From: Escherichia coli
Lineage (GTDB): Bacteria; Pseudomonadota; Gammaproteobacteria; Enterobacterales; Enterobacteriaceae
Direction: 5' to 3' (one strand)
Length of the DNA stretch: 64,000 bases
Assembly: GCF_024700885.2 (NCBI RefSeq)
Contig: NZ_CP117016.1
This document shows, piece by piece, positions 3,165 to 42,700 of the stretch. Each line of letters opens with the position of its first letter. Position 1 is the first letter of the stretch. A model generated the notes under the pieces. It worked only from the letters and a program-made list of their open reading frames with translations. It did no database searches and was not told where the DNA came from. The position numbers and the translations under genes were made by a program.

Positions 3165-5303
3165 TTAACCTATCTGCCCATTTCCCAAATGTTTAACGCG
3201 GCGCTTAACTTCTTCCTGCTTACCAGCGTTAAACGGACGTGCATCCGGGCTACCTAAATATCCGCACACGCGGCGAGTCACCGATACACGGGAGGTGTCA
3301 TGGTTACCACATTTCGGACAAGTGAAGCCTTTACTAGTGCACTCGAACTCACCGGTAAAGCCACACTCGTAGCACTCATCGATCGGCGTATTGGTGCCGT
3401 AATACGGTACATGCTGATAGCTGTAATCCCAGACATCTTCCAGCGCCTTCAGGTTGTGCTGAATGTTTGGATACTCGCCGTAGCAAATGAAACCACCGTT
3501 CGCCAGCGGCGGGTAAGGCGCTTCAAAGTCGATCTTGTCGTATGGGTTCACCTTCTTCTCCACATCGAGGTGGAAACTGTTGGTGTAGTAACCTTTATCG
3601 GTCACGCCCGGCACCACGCCAAACTCAGCGGTATCGAGACGGCAGAAGCGGTCGCACAGGTTTTCACTTGGCGTGCTGTAGAGACTGAAACCGTAACCCG
3701 TTTCTTCTTTCCACTGATCCACTGCCTGACGCAGACGTTCAACAATTGCGATACCTTTCGCGCGAAGCTGCTCGTTGTCGTAAACATGCTCGCCGCCGAA
3801 CAGCGCGTTAATGGTTTCGTGGATGCCGATGTAACCCAGCGAAATAGACGCACGACCGTTTTTGAAGATTTCAGAAACATCATCGTCAGCATTGAGACGC
3901 ACGCCACAAGCACCTTCCATATAGAGGATCGGGGCCACGCGCGCTTTCACGCCTTCGAGACGAGCGATACGGGTCATCAGCGCTTTACGTGCCAGCACCA
4001 GACGTTCATCCAGCAGCTTCCAGAAGGTGGCTTCATCGCCTTTTGCTTCCAGAGCAATACGCGGCAGGTTCAGGCTGATCACGCCGAGGTTGTTACGACC
4101 ATCGTGGATCTGCTCGCCGTTTTCATTTTCCCACACGCCGAGGAAGCTGCGGCAGCCCATCGGGGTTTTAAACGAACCGGTGACTTTCACTACCTGATCG
4201 TAGTTCAGGATATCCGGATACATGCGCTTGCTTGCGCACTCCAGCGCCAGCTGTTTGATGTCGTAGTTCGGATCGCCTTTTTTATGGTTCAGACCATCGC
4301 GAATTGCAAACACCAGTTTCGGGAACACCGCAGTTTTACGGTTTTTACCGAGGCCTGCGATACGATTACGCAGGATAGATTCCTGAATCAGGCGCGATTC
4401 CCAGCTGGTGCCCAGACCAAAACCAAAGGTTACAAACGGTGTTTGACCGTTGGCGGTGTGCAGGGTGTTTACTTCGTACTCCAGCGACTGGAAGGCATCG
4501 TAGCACTCTTTGATGGTACGAGAGTTAGCGTAGCCTTCGGCGTCCGGGATGTTCCACTCTTCTGCGGTCTTGCGATGTTTGTTGTAGCTGGCGGTGACAA
4601 ACGGTGCCAGCACTTCATCGATACGGTTAATGGTGGTGCCGCCATAAATATGGCTGGCGACCTGGGCAATAATCTGCGCAGTTACCGCGGTTGCCGTAGA
4701 GATCGACTTCGGCGGTTCAATCTCGGCGTTCCCCATTTTAAAGCCCTGGGTCAGCATGCCTTTCAGGTCGATCAACATGCAGTTGAACATCGGGAAGAAC
4801 GGTGAGTAATCGAGATCGTGATAGTGAATATCACCACGTTCATGTGCCTGCACCACGTCACGCGGCAGCAGGTGCTGGCGTGCATAGTGTTTAGCCACGA
4901 TCCCGGCCAGCAGATCGCGCTGGGTTGGAATCACCTTGCTGTCTTTGTTGGCGTTTTCGTTGAGCAACGAGGAGTTGGTCTGCTCGACCAGACCACGGAT
5001 CTCCTGGTTCAGGCGGCCGCGTTTTTCACGTTCAATGTCGCGATCGTGACGGTACTCGATGTAAGCACGAGCCAGTTGTTTGTATGGACCCGACATCAGC
5101 TGGTTTTCAACTGCGGTCTGGATCTCATTGATATCCACCTGGTTGCGGCCCTGCATCTGCTCGCTGACAACCGCAGCAACAGTGGCGCAATAATCGGCAT
5201 CATCGACTTCCGCTGCTTTAGCTGCACGCAGAATCGCTTCTTTGATGCGCTCTGATTTAAACGGCACTTTGCAGCCGTCTCGTTTCATCACATGCGGTGT
5301 CAT
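3165..5303 (-). CDS. nrdD: anaerobic ribonucleoside-triphosphate reductase
   Basis: 712 aa with an ATP-cone N-terminus, a C-terminal Zn-ribbon CxxC..CxxC and the glycyl-radical motif RVCGYLG. Confidence 0.97.
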   Translation of the reverse strand: MTPHVMKRDGCKVPFKSERIKEAILRAAKAAEVDDADYCATVAAVVSEQMQGRNQVDINEIQTAVENQLMSGPYKQLARAYIEYRHDRDIEREKRGRLNQEIRGLVEQTNSSLLNENANKDSKVIPTQRDLLAGIVAKHYARQHLLPRDVVQAHERGDIHYHDLDYSPFFPMFNCMLIDLKGMLTQGFKMGNAEIEPPKSISTATAVTAQIIAQVASHIYGGTTINRIDEVLAPFVTASYNKHRKTAEEWNIPDAEGYANSRTIKECYDAFQSLEYEVNTLHTANGQTPFVTFGFGLGTSWESRLIQESILRNRIAGLGKNRKTAVFPKLVFAIRDGLNHKKGDPNYDIKQLALECASKRMYPDILNYDQVVKVTGSFKTPMGCRSFLGVWENENGEQIHDGRNNLGVISLNLPRIALEAKGDEATFWKLLDERLVLARKALMTRIARLEGVKARVAPILYMEGACGVRLNADDDVSEIFKNGRASISLGYIGIHETINALFGGEHVYDNEQLRAKGIAIVERLRQAVDQWKEETGYGFSLYSTPSENLCDRFCRLDTAEFGVVPGVTDKGYYTNSFHLDVEKKVNPYDKIDFEAPYPPLANGGFICYGEYPNIQHNLKALEDVWDYSYQHVPYYGTNTPIDECYECGFTGEFECTSKGFTCPKCGNHDTSRVSVTRRVCGYLGSPDARPFNAGKQEEVKRRVKHLGNGQIG

Positions 5304-10003: not shown

Positions 10004-10267
10004 CATAGATGCTACGAATATTATTGGATTCTCCTTATTATTTGCGGCGCTTTTTTCACTTACCGGAGGTTATATGGAACCTGATCCCACGCCTCTCCCT
10101 CGACGGAGATTAAAACTTTTCCGGTAAGCCCGTCTTTTCACGGCGTTACCGGATGCGTAAGGCCGTGACGTTTTAACGTCCCTGCTCAGCTTTATTACCT
10201 TCAGGTAAGGCTTCGCCACGCCTGAAGACATTTCTGTACTGTTTCAGACAGTGCGGAGGGACTCCTT
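10004..10267 (+). promoter_or_regulatory. mgtA Mg2+/proline-sensing 5' leader (approximate extent)
   Basis: Long untranslated region ahead of mgtA that contains the mgtL ORF. The extent is set from the remembered leader length of about 264 nt, not measured here. Confidence 0.6.
10074..10127 (+). CDS. mgtL: mgtA leader peptide
   Basis: 17-codon proline-rich [20 protein letters not shown] with SD GGAGG upstream. It is the tail of ORF-track entry 9786..10127. Confidence 0.85.
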
Positions 10268-28450: not shown

Positions 28451-29965
<1,515 letters not shown>

Positions 29966-35418: not shown

Positions 35419-35503
35419 GCCGAAGTGGCGAAATCGGTAGACGCAGTTGATTCAAAATCAACCGTAGAAATACGTGCCGGTTCGAGTCCGGCCTTCGGCA
35501 CCA
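35419..35503 (+). tRNA. leuX: tRNA-Leu (CAA), complete, 85 nt with encoded CCA
   Basis: GCCGAAGTGGCGAAATCGGTAGACGCAGTTGATTCAAAATCAACCGTAGAAATACGTGCCGGTTCGAGTCCGGCCTTCGGCACCA. It has a long variable arm and anticodon loop TTCAAAA. Confidence 0.97.
35479..35503 (+). repeat. direct repeat copy 1 (att core inside leuX 3' end)
   Basis: GGTTCGAGTCCGGCCTTCGGCACCA, identical to 41077-41101. Confidence 0.95.
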
Positions 35504-36016: not shown

Positions 36017-36931
36017 TTATGGTAAGTATTTAAGTATTTCTGCTGCCCAGTTTACACGGTGGATGACACGGGCATGGTGCAAGTTTCCGTCTAGTATTTC
36101 GGCTTTAGTTAGCTGGGATAACTGCTGCCAATTATTGTTAAGTATATAAGTTGCGTTATTACATTGTGAGCTTTCTAGCACGTAAATGTTTTGGCCTGTG
36201 AACCCAAATATCACGTAGCCTTGGAACCCAGCTTGCCCAACCGCTACGAAATCTGGTTTTTTACTATTGATAAGTTCAAGTCTGCCTTCAACAACAGCGG
36301 TATTGCCCTTTCCCCTGATCTTAATAGCTGAAAGGATTTTTGAGCCGATAGTACTCCAAGGCTGTTGACCCTGAGGCAGGAGGCTCCAGTTTAGTTTTAT
36401 AGATTTACTTTTAACGATGGTATTAAGTTGGTCGTCAACAGTTTCGCACAACCCAAAAAGCTCTAAAAAAAGATTAATGCAGTGAGCCACTAACTCTTTG
36501 TTGTTAGCTGTCAAACTTAGCTTTGGAGAGATGATCAACTTCTCCCCTTGAAGATTCTCTACAATCTTTAACTCTATGCTTGGTGGAGGGGTGAGGATTC
36601 TCTTGTAGCGCTTATACTCAATTTCACGAGTGTCAGTAACTTCTTGAGTTGCGCCCCCTCCGATCCATTGCTTTCTAGTCCATGAAATTTGTCTGTATGC
36701 AGTTTCTTTAGGTGCTGTTTTGTCAGGTACTGATTTGCCATTAGCATTGAATCTGGTTATTGGCCCTAAAATCTTGGGGAGGACTTCTTCACCTAAAGCT
36801 CTTTGACTTGAGAAACCAATAGAGTCCGTTTTCCCCGCATCTGGCAAAGAATGTGCAATGTAGATATCACGGCCATCAAAGTTAGGTATGTAATTATCAA
36901 TATTTCGAATACGCTTTTTCTGAATAAGCAT
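36017..36931 (-). CDS. orphan 304-aa protein, no family recognised
   Basis: Long AT-rich ORF with SD AAGGAA 7 nt upstream of the ATG. A GCGCGGG..CCCGCGC hairpin lies after the stop. No motif that I can assign. Confidence 0.75.
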   Translation of the reverse strand: MLIQKKRIRNIDNYIPNFDGRDIYIAHSLPDAGKTDSIGFSSQRALGEEVLPKILGPITRFNANGKSVPDKTAPKETAYRQISWTRKQWIGGGATQEVTDTREIEYKRYKRILTPPPSIELKIVENLQGEKLIISPKLSLTANNKELVAHCINLFLELFGLCETVDDQLNTIVKSKSIKLNWSLLPQGQQPWSTIGSKILSAIKIRGKGNTAVVEGRLELINSKKPDFVAVGQAGFQGYVIFGFTGQNIYVLESSQCNNATYILNNNWQQLSQLTKAEILDGNLHHARVIHRVNWAAEILKYLP

Positions 36932-37062
36932 GGATCGTTCCTTTTGATTTTATCTTACTGTTTACATAACCAACCAAGCCGGGCACAATCGAGCCGTTAG
37001 AAACGATAGTGAGGCTAACAATCGTTATGAGTTTGCAGACTCATGGCGGTCATGCTTCATAG

Positions 37063-37094
37063 ACCGGATTCACGCAGGTGACTCCGGTTTTTTT
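37063..37094 (+). terminator. strong plus-strand rho-independent terminator with no upstream plus-strand ORF
   Basis: ACCGGA-T-TCAC GCAG GTGA-C-TCCGGT followed by seven T. The opposite strand lacks a U-run. Confidence 0.7.
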
Positions 37095-37787
37095 ATGCCC
37101 ATCATTTATACATGAGCACAACATATAGGGTGTGTTAATAAGATTACCCCCTACATGTTCAGCATTCTAGTTAGGATTCTTTGCAGTACAAGGGGTGATT
37201 TTGAGGTTAAATTGAGGTTGTCAAAGGGAAATTTCGACCAACCCTACGTGCCGTAAGGCTTAGGCTGTATGTCAATGTTTCAGAAAAAAAATGAAAATTT
37301 GATCGAGTGCTGATTTCTTTAGCACGAGAACATGAGATCGAACCAAAATATTGCAAAGTTTTGAACAAAACTTGAGCTGCCTCGTGTCTCCATAGCCAAG
37401 ACGAATGCAGTTTAAATAAGCTAAGTCAGCTCTCAAAAGTCCTTTATGACCCGAACCAAAAATTGTACCTCTTAAACCCCCACCGCAAGCGGCTCTCCGG
37501 GGTTTGTGCGCGTGGAGTAATGCGATTGTACTGGGTATGTGCGCACAACCCTCTACAAGCCGCATTCTACCGTTAGCCTATAGCTGAATCCCCGGCTTGA
37601 AAAATTGCACGCTTATGGTTGCCCCTCCCTCAACTGTATAGCTCGCCCGCGCCCCCGTGCGCATGTGCGTGCCCGCGCGTCAGGGGTCGCTGAGAAAACC
37701 CTAAGATTTTGCTCATCCGAGACAACCGTTGCAGGCGCGCGTTGCCGGGGCACACTGTTAGTGTTTGATGGTGTCATCAATCGACCG

Positions 37788-37884
37788 TTTTCTGGCACCT
37801 CCCAATCGCACGCTTTCACACTGTTGGAAAAATAGCCTTGGCTTTTCTGGCAGGCCATCCTAATGTTGGCCTCGTTTTCTGGCA
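37788..37884 (+). promoter_or_regulatory. three direct copies of TTTTCTGGCA upstream of the recombinase gene
   Basis: Copies at 37788-37797, 37843-37852 and 37875-37884. Copy 2 sits in the imperfect palindrome GAAAAATAGCC-TT-GGCTTTTCTG. Confidence 0.4.
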
Positions 37885-37906
37885 GGGGTCAGATGGGGAG
37901 ATAACA

Positions 37907-38467
37907 ATGGCAACTTTTGGCTACGGACGTGTTTCGACATCGCAGCAGGATACTGAGAACCAACGGCTGGAGCTTGGGCAGGCTGGGTGGCAAATTGATT
38001 ACTGGTTTGCCGATGTTGTTAGCGGGAAGGTTCCGGCAATGCAACGTAAAGCATTTTCTGAAATGCTCAATAAAATCCGCGATGGTGAAACGTTGGTGGT
38101 AGCGAAGCTTGATCGTCTGGGGCGTGATGCGATTGACGTCCTGCAAACGGTAAGGGCGCTGGCTGACCGTAATATCAAGGTTCTTGTCCACCAGCTTGGT
38201 AACACAGATCTCACTTCTGCCGCTGGGAAGTTGCTATTATCTATGCTCGCCGCGGTTGCGGAGATGGAGCGTGATCTGCTGATTGAGCGCACTCAGGCGG
38301 GACTATCACGAGCAAAAGCCGAAGGTAAGAAATTGGGCAGACCTCCTAAAATCGCGTCAGAAGCCCGTAGAGAGATTTTAGAGAAAAAGAATAGCGGTTT
38401 GAGTATCAGTGCGTTAGCGCGTCAATATGGCGTTTCAAGAGCGACTGTAGCAGCTATTACCGATTGA
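37907..38467 (+). CDS. small serine recombinase (resolvase/invertase family)
   Basis: Start at MATFGYGRVSTSQQ (catalytic Ser motif) with SD GGGGAG upstream. Contains DRLGRD and the C-terminal HTH GLSISALARQYGVSRATV. 186 aa. Confidence 0.9.
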   Translation: MATFGYGRVSTSQQDTENQRLELGQAGWQIDYWFADVVSGKVPAMQRKAFSEMLNKIRDGETLVVAKLDRLGRDAIDVLQTVRALADRNIKVLVHQLGNTDLTSAAGKLLLSMLAAVAEMERDLLIERTQAGLSRAKAEGKKLGRPPKIASEARREILEKKNSGLSISALARQYGVSRATVAAITD

Positions 38468-38480
38468 ATATGGAGAGTTT

Positions 38481-39326
38481 ATGGCTTACACAGCAACTGT
38501 TATCCCTGTAATGATTGCTTCTCCTGGTGATGTCGCTGAAGAGAGACAAGTCATTCGTGAAATGATCCATGAGTGGAATGATATAAATTCAGCTCGTTCA
38601 AAAGTAATGTTGACACCAATTGGATGGGAAACTCATACATCACCCGAATTAGGAGTTAGGCCTCAGAAGTTGATTAATCAAAGATTATTAGTAGATTGTG
38701 ATTTATTAATCGGTGTGTTTTGGACTCGTCTAGGCTCACCGACTGGGAACGAGGCCAGCGGAACAGTCGAAGAAATCCACCGTCATTTGAATGCGGGAAA
38801 ACCGGCAATGATTTACTTTTCCTCAAAGCCTGTTGCCCCTGAAAGCCTTGATAGAGAACAATATGAGTCTCTTAAATTGTTCAAAACTGAGTGCATGCAA
38901 AAGGGATTGATAGAGTCTTTTAATGACTTATCTGATTTCAAAGACAAAGTCCGTAGGCAACTTTCGATAATTATTTCTAGTAGCCCTTATTTGTCTTCTC
39001 TTATATCTACCATTAACAATTCTCCTGATGCGAATACAAGTCAATCTTTGCCAGAAAGTAATTTGTCCGCCGATGCACTCAGTTTGCTGAAATTGGCATG
39101 TGTCGATGATAGCGGAACAATTTATGTGATAAGGCATTTAGGTGGCACGGATATTCAAGCGGGAAATCAATCCTTTGGTGGAAGTTCGGCTAGAGAGGTA
39201 GCCCGTTGGGAGGGCGCACTTAACGAACTGTTATCCTTTGATTATGTGATTGAAAGAGGGGCAAAAGGACAAATGTATTATGTTACTCATAAAGGCTGGA
39301 CATTTCTTGAATCTTTAAATGAATAA
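38481..39326 (+). CDS. DUF4062 / TIR-like (nucleoside 2-deoxyribosyltransferase-like) N-terminal domain protein with an unknown C-terminal domain
   Basis: N-terminal VMIASPGDVAEER ... CDLLIGVFWTRLGSPTG..ASGTVEEIHRHLNAGKPAMIYFS matches my memory of the DUF4062 pattern. Lies 13 nt after the recombinase stop with SD GGAGAG upstream. Confidence 0.6.
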   Translation: MAYTATVIPVMIASPGDVAEERQVIREMIHEWNDINSARSKVMLTPIGWETHTSPELGVRPQKLINQRLLVDCDLLIGVFWTRLGSPTGNEASGTVEEIHRHLNAGKPAMIYFSSKPVAPESLDREQYESLKLFKTECMQKGLIESFNDLSDFKDKVRRQLSIIISSSPYLSSLISTINNSPDANTSQSLPESNLSADALSLLKLACVDDSGTIYVIRHLGGTDIQAGNQSFGGSSAREVARWEGALNELLSFDYVIERGAKGQMYYVTHKGWTFLESLNE

Positions 39327-41734: not shown

Positions 41735-42359
41735 GTTCCTTTAACCATCCGCAATGGCCAACGGTTTACAGAGCATAATACGAATAGCCGTAGAGCCAGC
41801 CAGTTACGGTGGTCGCGATGGTGTGTCCGCCAGAAAATCACCACGAATACCAGAATCGCGGCACTGACCAGAAAATGATAAACAGGAAACACGGGGAGGT
41901 TCACTTTGCTTTCTCCTGTAGTATTTTCTGTAGGTTCTGAACCGGTTCGAGCGGGGTTGTGAGGCTGATGGCAATCCCCGGGCTCTTCCTGCATGTTACA
42001 CTGGTACTGCAACAGGGGGCCTTCGCTCCTATGACATTACTCAGTATTTTCACTACTACACCCCATCTGCCATCCATAACAACCGATTCACCCCCTCGGG
42101 AGGCGTTGTTGCCCGTCACCCGGACAGGCATCGTTATGGACTTCTCTTGTTGCACGATCGATCAATTGTTATGCATGCTGACACCACTACCCCGGTGGGT
42201 ATGACCGATGCCTTTCTCACTCTCTTCCCGGTCATCGTCGGCCTTCCCCGTTATTGTGGCGTGTCGGCACCATCGACGGCATTTCGATGGCTGCTCAGTG
42301 TTCACTCACGTTACGGCCCGCATAACCCATTGACTTCCTGAAGAAGTCGTTTCAGGGAG

Positions 42360-42700
42360 AGATTCAGCCCTTTTGTTACCTCCTGGACCGCTTCCTGTCC
42401 TTCCAGTTGGAGCGAGAGTTAGTCGGGGCGGACTTTCACCGACGGAAAGATCGTGCATTTCAAGGCACACACAACAATATCTGCGAGCGTGCTATCCGTC
42501 CGGTCGTTATGGGACGAAAGGCCTGGTTGTTCGCTGGTTCACTGATGGCCGGGAACCGAGCGGCACAGATAATGAGCCTTCTGGAAACAGCAGTCTGGAG
42601 CCACATGCTTGGCTGACGGACGTCCTAACGCGTCTGCCCGGAGTGGCCGGAGGAGAGGTTGGCAGAGTTACTGCCTCTTGAGGGCTTTACCTTCTTTGGG
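42360..42700 (+). pseudogene. IS66-family transposase (TnpC) C-terminal remnant, frameshifted
   Basis: One frame reads NNICERAIRPVVMGRKAWLFAGS...AAQIMSLLETA. A second frame reads EPHAWLTDVLTRLP. Confidence 0.75.

Follow-up and report, generated by a model that had tools for sequence, protein, structure and literature searches.

We analyzed a stretch of 64,000 nucleotides (nt) from an Escherichia coli chromosome (contig NZ_CP117016.1; this whole stretch is referred to as the window) and, by sequence comparison, identify positions 36961-37094 as a real small RNA gene with its own sigma-70 promoter and intrinsic terminator. The gene is read from the plus strand and faces orf304, a minus-strand gene for a 304-amino-acid protein. 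Given the promoter predicted below for orf304, the small RNA is predicted to be fully cis-antisense to the 5' leader of the orf304 messenger RNA (mRNA). Related loci carry other genes in the place of orf304, and the gene at this position is called the cargo. The best reading, to which we assign a probability of about 0.62, is that the small RNA is an antisense repressor of the cargo mRNA resembling those known from type I toxin-antitoxin loci. A preliminary description, made from the window alone, had proposed a small RNA of ~100 nt with its own promoter, hairpins, and terminator; promoter conservation, covariation, and the strand bias of G-U pairs support this proposal, and the coordinates given for these elements were all exact on re-check. 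The small RNA gene is composed as follows:

36961-36966 (+): -35 hexamer TTTACA of the small RNA, from the promoter scan, conserved in relatives.
36984-36989 (+): -10 hexamer CACAAT of the small RNA, after a spacer of 17 base pairs (bp), from the promoter scan, conserved in relatives.
36996-37094 (+): predicted small RNA of ~99 nt, with the start placed from the -10 hexamer (+/-2 nt) and the end at the U-tract.
37010-37059 (+): central domain, from the minimum-energy fold and compensatory changes.
37063-37094 (+): intrinsic terminator with a 6+4 bp stem, a one-base bulge, and seven U, from fold, covariation, and U-tract.

Relatives were collected with a degenerate 20-nt pattern of the hairpin, which returned 53 metagenome and four viral stretches. 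About 47 of them are true relatives, and the others share the short palindrome alone. The enterobacterial orf304 loci and the pattern matches gave a comparison set of 46 distinct 440-nt upstream regions; in total, the related loci number ~50 and come from Enterobacterales and metagenomes. The promoter scan scores TTTACA-17-CACAAT 9/12, and the combination is exact in 41 and near-exact in 43 of the 46 distinct relatives. In the lineage of loci L079 and L082, the hexamers and the 17-bp spacing are retained, though 8 of the 17 spacer bases differ.

DNA homology runs past the start codon of orf304. It reaches 37093 in Serratia and extends as far as ~37320-37365 in Ewingella, Leclercia, Pectobacterium, and Pseudescherichia. 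By this comparison, the small RNA segment is under selection: in five relatives, its identity to the window is 77-87%, while the third codon positions of orf304 reach 42-51% and the next 65 nt reach 41-57%. When a covariance model trained on 24 relatives was run over the window, its match at 36994-37095 (+) reached 109.7 bits, and no other site gave a comparable match.

The 101 nt from 36996 to 37096 fold at -41.1 kcal/mol (z = -5.47), a value that is equaled by none of 200 shuffles. The preliminary description had placed two hairpins here, 37002-37007 with 37021-37026 (hairpin 1) and 37027-37032 with 37039-37044 (hairpin 2). As an alternative fold, both stems pair in relatives (97.2% of cells, 6 pairs changed on both sides). 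Hairpin 1, however, is absent from the minimum-energy fold, in which its 3' arm ATCGTT (37021-37026) lengthens hairpin 2 to a 13-bp stem (37021-37033 with 37038-37050, four G-U pairs). This long hairpin (37021-37032 with 37039-37050) carries the apical loop UUUGCAG and is enclosed by 37010-37015 with 37054-37059. In the nested model, 95.3% of cells are paired and 8 pairs are changed on both sides, which 0/500 shuffles reach; slid controls give 33-44%. The nested and the two-hairpin fold are indistinguishable from these counts and may alternate.

Covariance analysis over homologous loci, which the preliminary description had suggested as a check, showed that the hairpins and the terminator are conserved with compensatory changes. 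RNAalifold returns 31 pairs, 7 of them compensatory. Compensatory pairs in the central domain (alignment A4) are 17/66, 18/65, 30/55, and 35/50. In L079/L082, the enclosing stem changes from UA to CG and from GC to AU, and the apical hairpin from UA to CG; the L082 variant keeps the shape of the fold (z = -6.16). One compensatory UA occurs at pair 30/55 of the lower stem, and at pair 31/54 (GU, GC, AU) only one side varies.

These substitutions also bear on the idea that the plus transcript is a tiny mRNA for an 11-amino-acid peptide (MSLQTHGGHAS, ATG at 37027). The ATG and the first 8-11 codons are found in most relatives, and several differences are synonymous. However, there is no Shine-Dalgarno sequence at a usable distance, and the stop is not conserved, the length varying from 11 to 40 amino acids. 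In L079/L082, the ATG has become ACG together with a change of the partner base (pair 35/50: UA 24, CG 2). A small protein-coding gene was therefore rejected, as it lacks a conserved stop and a Shine-Dalgarno sequence and its start is lost with compensation at the RNA level; we regard the peptide as extremely improbable. A mechanical call also yields a 49-codon open reading frame at 36851-37000 (+), which is antisense to the orf304 start and stops within the 5' end of the predicted small RNA. The earlier statement that no plus-strand open reading frame lies upstream of the terminator has to be corrected in this respect.

The terminator stands where the preliminary description had put it. Its arms are ACCGGA (37063-37068) and TCAC (37070-37073) on one side and GTGA (37078-37081) and TCCGGT (37083-37088) on the other, and the seven T are 37088-37094, where the T-run ends. 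It folds at -17.1 kcal/mol (z = -6.05); a simple scan missed it because the stem is bulged. Over 26 sequences, 97.7% of cells pair, and four pairs covary: 70/96, 71/95, 75/91 (GC 10, AU 9, GU 7), and 80/86 (CG 14, UA 10). A T-run of 4-9 is retained in the 26 aligned relatives.

Such a terminator could also serve as an insulator against antisense read-through into orf304, for example from leuX (35419-35503), and the promoter would then be fortuitous. leuX is indeed plus-directed and lies 500 bp past the orf304 stop, and promoter-like matches in a single sequence are about as frequent as chance predicts. Yet the hexamers and their spacing are conserved across different neighborhoods (islets, prophages, plasmid), and the 60 nt from promoter to terminator, which an insulator would not need, are the best-conserved part and show structural covariation. 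We hold this explanation to be very improbable.

The preliminary description had added that the two RNAs would be cis-antisense if the orf304 transcript began further upstream. The comparison agrees with this: a conserved minus-strand promoter (37191-37164) and a covarying 5' hairpin put the predicted orf304 start near 37157. The elements on this side are as follows:

36017-36931 (-): orf304, with the ribosome-binding site AAAGGA at ~36939-36944.
36932-37157 (-): predicted 5' leader of the orf304 mRNA, ~226 nt, from the conserved promoter; it holds the complement of the entire small RNA.
37094-37120 (-): second leader hairpin with a 9-10 bp stem, directly 3' of the 5'-terminal hairpin on the mRNA, with minus-only G-U pairs.
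37121-37158 (-): 5'-terminal leader hairpin (ACAUGUAGGG...CCCUAUAUGU), from covariation and minus-strand pairing.
37169-37164 (-): predicted -10 hexamer TAGAAT of the cargo promoter, after a 16-bp spacer, from the comparison.
37191-37186 (-): predicted -35 hexamer TTGTAC of the cargo promoter, from the comparison.
37192-37335 (no strand assigned): conserved upstream block with GATTTTGAGGTTAAATTGAGGTT, an A8-9 tract, and GAAAATTTGATCGAGTGCTGATTTC with a GATC site.

The pattern TTGTRC-16-TAnAAT is present in 44 of the 46 distinct relatives with a variable spacer sequence, and the hexamers and spacing are also found in 19 loci of a sister class (class B, described below). The two exceptions are from Serratia (L008/L014). 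There, the small RNA terminator marks the exact end of homology. Upstream of locus position 3838, another sequence takes the place of the promoter module; in it, TTGCAA-17-TATCTT may be a promoter, and ACACTA/TAGTGT form a shortened hairpin. This replacement indicates that the unit of leader and small RNA can join other promoters.

The predicted start at ~37157 falls at the first base of the inverted repeat 37158-37121, which forms the 5'-terminal hairpin. Its pairs 137/166 (GC 19, AU 5), 139/164, and 134/169 covary; it pairs in 96.1% on the minus strand versus 89.7% on the plus strand and is present in the RNAalifold consensus of the leader. Judged from its predicted position and structure, it is a hairpin of the kind that stabilizes mRNAs. 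The second leader hairpin is variable in sequence and is retained as a hairpin in relatives, as judged without a formal count. Candidate minus-strand leader peptides for translational coupling, in the style of R1 tap or hok/mok, were rejected as artefactual open reading frames with variable starts and changing peptides.

For the upstream block, no conserved RNA structure was detected on either strand in 37195-37345 and no conserved open reading frame in 37192-37335; the block is presumably a protein-binding or UP-type DNA element. An invertible promoter (fim-type or Hin-type) was considered because a serine recombinase gene (37907-38467) adjoins the region and small tyrosine recombinases flank relatives. 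It was rejected, as there are no flanking inverted repeats and the orientation is the same in 46/46 distinct relatives.

In this geometry, the small RNA is perfectly complementary to positions ~64-162 of the predicted leader, the convergent promoters are ~160 bp apart, and the overlap stops ~50 nt 5' of the ribosome-binding site. In 32 loci, the cargo ATG lies at a fixed distance of 262-267 nt from the promoter module.

The small RNA helices pair in 80.8%, 88.3%, and 94.7% of cells when read as plus strand versus 69.0%, 69.5%, and 82.9% as minus strand, and the G-U pairs of the long hairpin are plus-only in 104 cases versus minus-only in 33. By this pairing bias, the transcribed strand of the small RNA is the plus strand. 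An explanation in which the structure works in cis only, controlling stability or translation from within the orf304 leader and without a separate plus RNA, is thus unlikely. It draws on the location of the region within the predicted leader, which folds at -70 kcal/mol (z = -3.13), and on the 5'-terminal and second hairpins, which pair better on the minus strand. RNAalifold also keeps a helix in which the promoter-spacer stretch pairs over a long range with the complement of the small RNA body, and this helix could by itself explain the conservation of the spacer. On the minus strand, however, the G-U pairs of the small RNA turn into A-C mismatches (88% vs 70% for the long hairpin, 95% vs 83% for the terminator), and a conserved U-run after a GC-rich stem makes sense on the plus strand only. 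In addition, the hexamers and the 17-bp spacing outlast the divergence of the spacer, and promoter, hairpin, and terminator degrade jointly in decayed lineages. The two explanations are not exclusive, as the small RNA is itself proposed to target this leader.

Taking the small RNA as an antisense repressor, we infer that repression of the cargo mRNA is its most likely action. The small RNA and the leader would first touch through their complementary apical loops. These loops read UUUGCAG or UCUGCAA, are mutual reverse complements, and in every class A variant (the class of the window, see below) one of the partners contains UUUG. A duplex of up to 99 bp would then form, and the cargo mRNA would be silenced either by duplex cleavage, with loss of the protective 5' hairpin, or by blocked ribosome loading upstream. 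Collision of convergent polymerases might add to the silencing.

The promoter module is shared by loci that differ in what lies downstream of it, and two classes were defined on this basis: class A with 41 loci (the window included) and class B with 20 loci. Class A carries the small RNA of the window. In the 33 loci examined, the cargo is orf304 in 20, an 88-amino-acid protein in 11, and uncalled in 1. The distance to the ATG is equal for orf304 and the 88-amino-acid cargo. The latter occurs, for example, in E. coli S1-INA-02-B and on a replicon of Enterobacter asburiae, with scores of 79-82 bits for the small RNA model.

The 88-amino-acid protein is cysteine-rich (MPICKQAHRYNSIFISLPHDQGGDGRHKCCGCAYDQGYRAGL..., MPICKQAHRY...) and unrelated to orf304. 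It is encoded in L082 at 3203-3469 (-) and is also found in L019, L028, L039, L040, L043, L045, L046, L052, L056, L065, and L079. It contains two (A/E)xGYRxG motifs and weakly resembles ribosome modulation factor (E = 0.0015, which does not reach the Pfam threshold).

In class B, a different convergent small RNA occupies the same position behind the promoter TTGAAG-17-TAAGCT. It has two covarying hairpins and a terminator of CCCGGTCTAATCAGCCGGG followed by six U (z = -4.42). The class B cargo consists of two tandem hydrophobic peptides of 26-28 amino acids, which follow a leader of ~380 nt, have strong ribosome-binding sites, and are succeeded by a terminator; MQMLLLFLKLAHPVAVIIMTLLGYWKDR and MVSLLLKILPPLVAIITTIIDYINKR are examples (L080, L081, L083-L101). 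This is the anatomy of a type I toxin-antitoxin locus, and class B looks like an unannotated type I toxin-antitoxin family.

The module is also found on plasmids that lack orf304. A sensitive plasmid search matched only 37118-37329, a segment with the upstream block, the cargo promoter, and the 5' hairpin; the matches are 27 plasmids of Citrobacter, Klebsiella, Enterobacter, and Salmonella. A search with the motif of the upstream block, which is common to class A and class B loci and these plasmids, led to 22 viral contigs. On these plasmids and contigs, the module stands before the other convergent small RNA and the paired hydrophobic peptides described for class B. On comparison, what the loci conserve is an architecture, in which a promoter and a 5' hairpin are followed by a leader that houses a convergent small RNA gene, and the cargo is not conserved. 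The unit of promoter, leader, and antisense RNA would appear to be a portable cassette for islands, prophages, and plasmids, with cargo that is harmful if over-expressed.

The two classes are also informative on whether the small RNA is made and has its main targets in trans, such as host, phage, or sister-cassette mRNAs, so that the overlap with the leader would be incidental. In favor of this, the terminator hairpin with its long U-tail is a layout shared with trans-acting small RNAs of enterobacteria, two different cargo genes are accompanied by the one small RNA, and lineages that keep orf304 have lost this RNA. Nevertheless, in ~50 loci the small RNA is never found away from the leader, and the unrelated class B small RNA at the same position points to the leader position, not the sequence, as what is conserved. 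A main role in trans is improbable.

Several findings weigh against the small RNA as a type I-like repressor of the cargo. Concerning its structure and promoters, the central hairpin is mostly invariant and its covariation comes from few lineages, with L079 and L082 counting in effect as a single event; the shuffle statistics are inflated by relatedness among the sequences. Promoter matches in the single sequence are at chance level (5 vs 3.6 +/- 1.7 expected in 3 kb), and the feature rises above chance because it is conserved at ~50 other loci. The -35 hexamer of the cargo promoter matches the consensus at 3/6 positions only, which is why a simple scan did not list this promoter. The transcription starts of the small RNA and of orf304 are both predictions, and the ribosome-binding site is not covered by the small RNA.

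Concerning its distribution, three lineages keep orf304 and the cargo promoter intact with a small RNA whose promoter, hairpin, or terminator has decayed. In Ewingella (L006/L007), the protein is the closest non-identical relative (88% identity); the spacer of the small RNA promoter is 12 bp (L006), and the broken hairpin goes with a model score of 32 bits and a fold of z = -1.2. In Pantoea eucrina (L012), the spacer is ~21 bp and the fold has z = -0.7. In Pantoea sp. (L015), the -10 hexamer is CGCAAG and the model match is partial. The small RNA gene is thus dispensable and not an obligate antitoxin. The joint decay of promoter, body, and terminator, on the other hand, supports that they form one gene. 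Distant orf304 homologues (Proteus, Firmicutes, archaea) are without the cassette, and no toxic or defense domain was recognizable in orf304 by Pfam, PADLOC, NCBIfam, and PDB fold searches.

The orf304 protein itself has no match in Pfam, PADLOC, NCBIfam, PHROGs, or PDB at the sequence level. An AlphaFold2 model (predicted local distance difference test, pLDDT, 86) has two mixed alpha/beta domains and no significant match among PDB folds. A literature search by protein accession returned nothing. The family comprises at least 722 homologues of ~305 amino acids from bacteria and archaea, with ~40 invariant residues. Homologues from other Enterobacterales are 72-88% identical, and those from distant bacteria and archaea (Kosmotoga, cyanobacteria, Methanobacterium) are 40-47% identical. 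Enterobacter chuandaensis and Kluyvera ascorbata encode a protein 100% identical to orf304, which points to recent transfer.

As for the neighbors of distant homologues, the Proteus gene sits as a moron among the tail genes of a P2-like prophage, between V and S, and has only 133 bp upstream, the Methanobacterium gene adjoins SIR2 and HATPase genes, the Kosmotoga gene is near a methyltransferase gene, and two Firmicutes homologues have housekeeping neighbors. A defense or addiction role for orf304 is put forward as a hypothesis. We tentatively consider a further step, which we find doubtful: the cassette might be a cargo-swappable "safety catch" for growth-stopping proteins of enterobacterial islands, prophages, and phage-plasmids, with orf304 as an abortive-infection or addiction effector that stays silent until synthesis of the small RNA stops. 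The catch would be released by phage-induced shut-off of host transcription or by loss of the element.

Among known systems, zorO-orzO and tisB-istR-1 are closest to the antisense arrangement proposed here. OrzO pairs with its toxin mRNA in the long 5' leader, at a site far from the ribosome-binding site (PMC5397157, PMC3919570), and IstR-1 likewise targets a long 5' leader distant from the ribosome-binding site (PMC7708055). The locus in the window resembles them in a small RNA with its own promoter and terminator and in a structured long-leader target, here predicted from sequence, and the class B sister cassettes encode hydrophobic peptides of 26-28 amino acids. Type I toxins are usually hydrophobic and typically under 60 amino acids (PMC11264685). 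The class B peptides are small hydrophobic proteins of this type, whereas the orf304 product, at 304 amino acids and predicted to be globular, is not. Further differences are that the window small RNA is fully cis-antisense over ~99 nt instead of sharing a short pairing region, that it has decayed in three lineages that keep the gene, and that it matches no Rfam antitoxin family.

A search of Rfam 15 over 36961-37094 returned no family at the gathering threshold or at E <= 10, with OrzO-P, Sok, SymR, IstR, RNAI, C4, and RNA-OUT included, and a search on the cassette of 8 related loci returned no match. A weak potC match at 37089-37125 (-) corresponds to the second leader hairpin. The class B small RNA of L081 aligns over the full OrzO-P model (RF02083) with hairpin, spacer, and terminator, but scores 34.2 bits against a gathering threshold of 60.

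In the symE-symR system of E. coli, which is type I-like, a cis-encoded antisense RNA controls a soluble, non-membrane toxin. SymR overlaps the ribosome-binding site and start codon of symE, and SymE has 113 amino acids. The predicted window system is similar in directing a cis-encoded antisense RNA against a soluble protein rather than a membrane peptide. It differs in that the overlap lies 5' of the ribosome-binding site and the cargo has 304 amino acids, and the sequences are unrelated.

RNA-OUT of IS10, OOP of phage lambda, CopA of plasmid R1, and hok/sok represent short, stable stem-loop RNAs that are made from convergent promoters and act against the 5' part of a mobile-element mRNA. They make loop-loop contact and then form a duplex, often followed by RNase III cleavage or an indirect block of translation. 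The likeness to these RNAs includes the UUUG (YUNR-type) motif in the loop of the small RNA or of its target in all class A variants. Sequences, structures, and targets are different, their Rfam models are unmatched, and the window cassette is common to unrelated cargo genes. By these comparisons, the RNA is a new small RNA family in a cargo-swappable antisense cassette and belongs to no Rfam family.

The window is from the E. coli chromosome, where the genes valS-holC-pepA-lptFG-yjgR-ahr are followed by leuX, a tRNA-Leu(CAA) gene, and then by an islet. The closest database records are ST648-type strains (100% identity). The first gene of the islet is orf304, and 975 bp without an annotated feature adjoin it; the element is the orf304-proximal end of that stretch. 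The element is carried by 93 of 5426 complete E. coli genomes with one copy per genome, and the carrier genomes found by the searches have no RefSeq feature at the position of the small RNA.

leuX is the attachment site of phage P4, and a P4 CI-type immunity RNA was considered because of this position. Both this and a guide or bridge RNA of an insertion sequence were set aside: the element is single-copy, no transposase domain is present in orf304, and Rfam gives no match.

Other features of the window are as follows:

10059-10174 (+): Mg2+ riboswitch, Rfam 125.8 bits, gathering threshold met.
29210-29404 (+): Ysr276, Rfam 180.8 bits, gathering threshold met.
37907-38467 (+): serine recombinase, beyond the unannotated 975-bp stretch.
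38481-39326 (+): DUF4062/PDC-S60-like gene of the islet.
42306-42445 (-): group II intron D1-D4 fragment, Rfam, gathering threshold met.

The N-terminal 160 residues of the DUF4062-type protein match the PADLOC candidate defense family PDC-S60 (E = 1.3e-26), which suggests defense-type cargo on the islet. Three direct copies of (CG)TTTTCTGGCA(GG) lie within 100 bp just 5' of the recombinase start at 37907 (37786-37797, 37843-37854, and 37873-37886) and may be binding sites of the recombinase or of a repressor. The stretch 37450-37760 is non-coding with a G+C content of 56-58%, occurs only in the islet versions of E. coli, Enterobacter chuandaensis, and Kluyvera ascorbata, and contains an imperfect inverted repeat (37489-37511 and 37541-37563).

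With this analysis, E. coli and its relatives gain a small RNA family that is conserved and unannotated. Should the regulation prove marginal, the locus would remain a clear case of conserved cis-antisense RNA, though of routine interest. If the small RNA is a type I-like repressor, removing or titrating it should unmask the activity of orf304, which would provide a practical handle on this protein. If, in addition, orf304 is the effector held silent by such a safety catch, the locus would be a type I toxin-antitoxin system with a 304-amino-acid toxin, and type I scaffolds would have been recruited for large effectors. That one cassette carries three kinds of cargo (hydrophobic toxins, the 88-amino-acid protein, and the 304-amino-acid protein) suggests that type I logic extends beyond small peptides.

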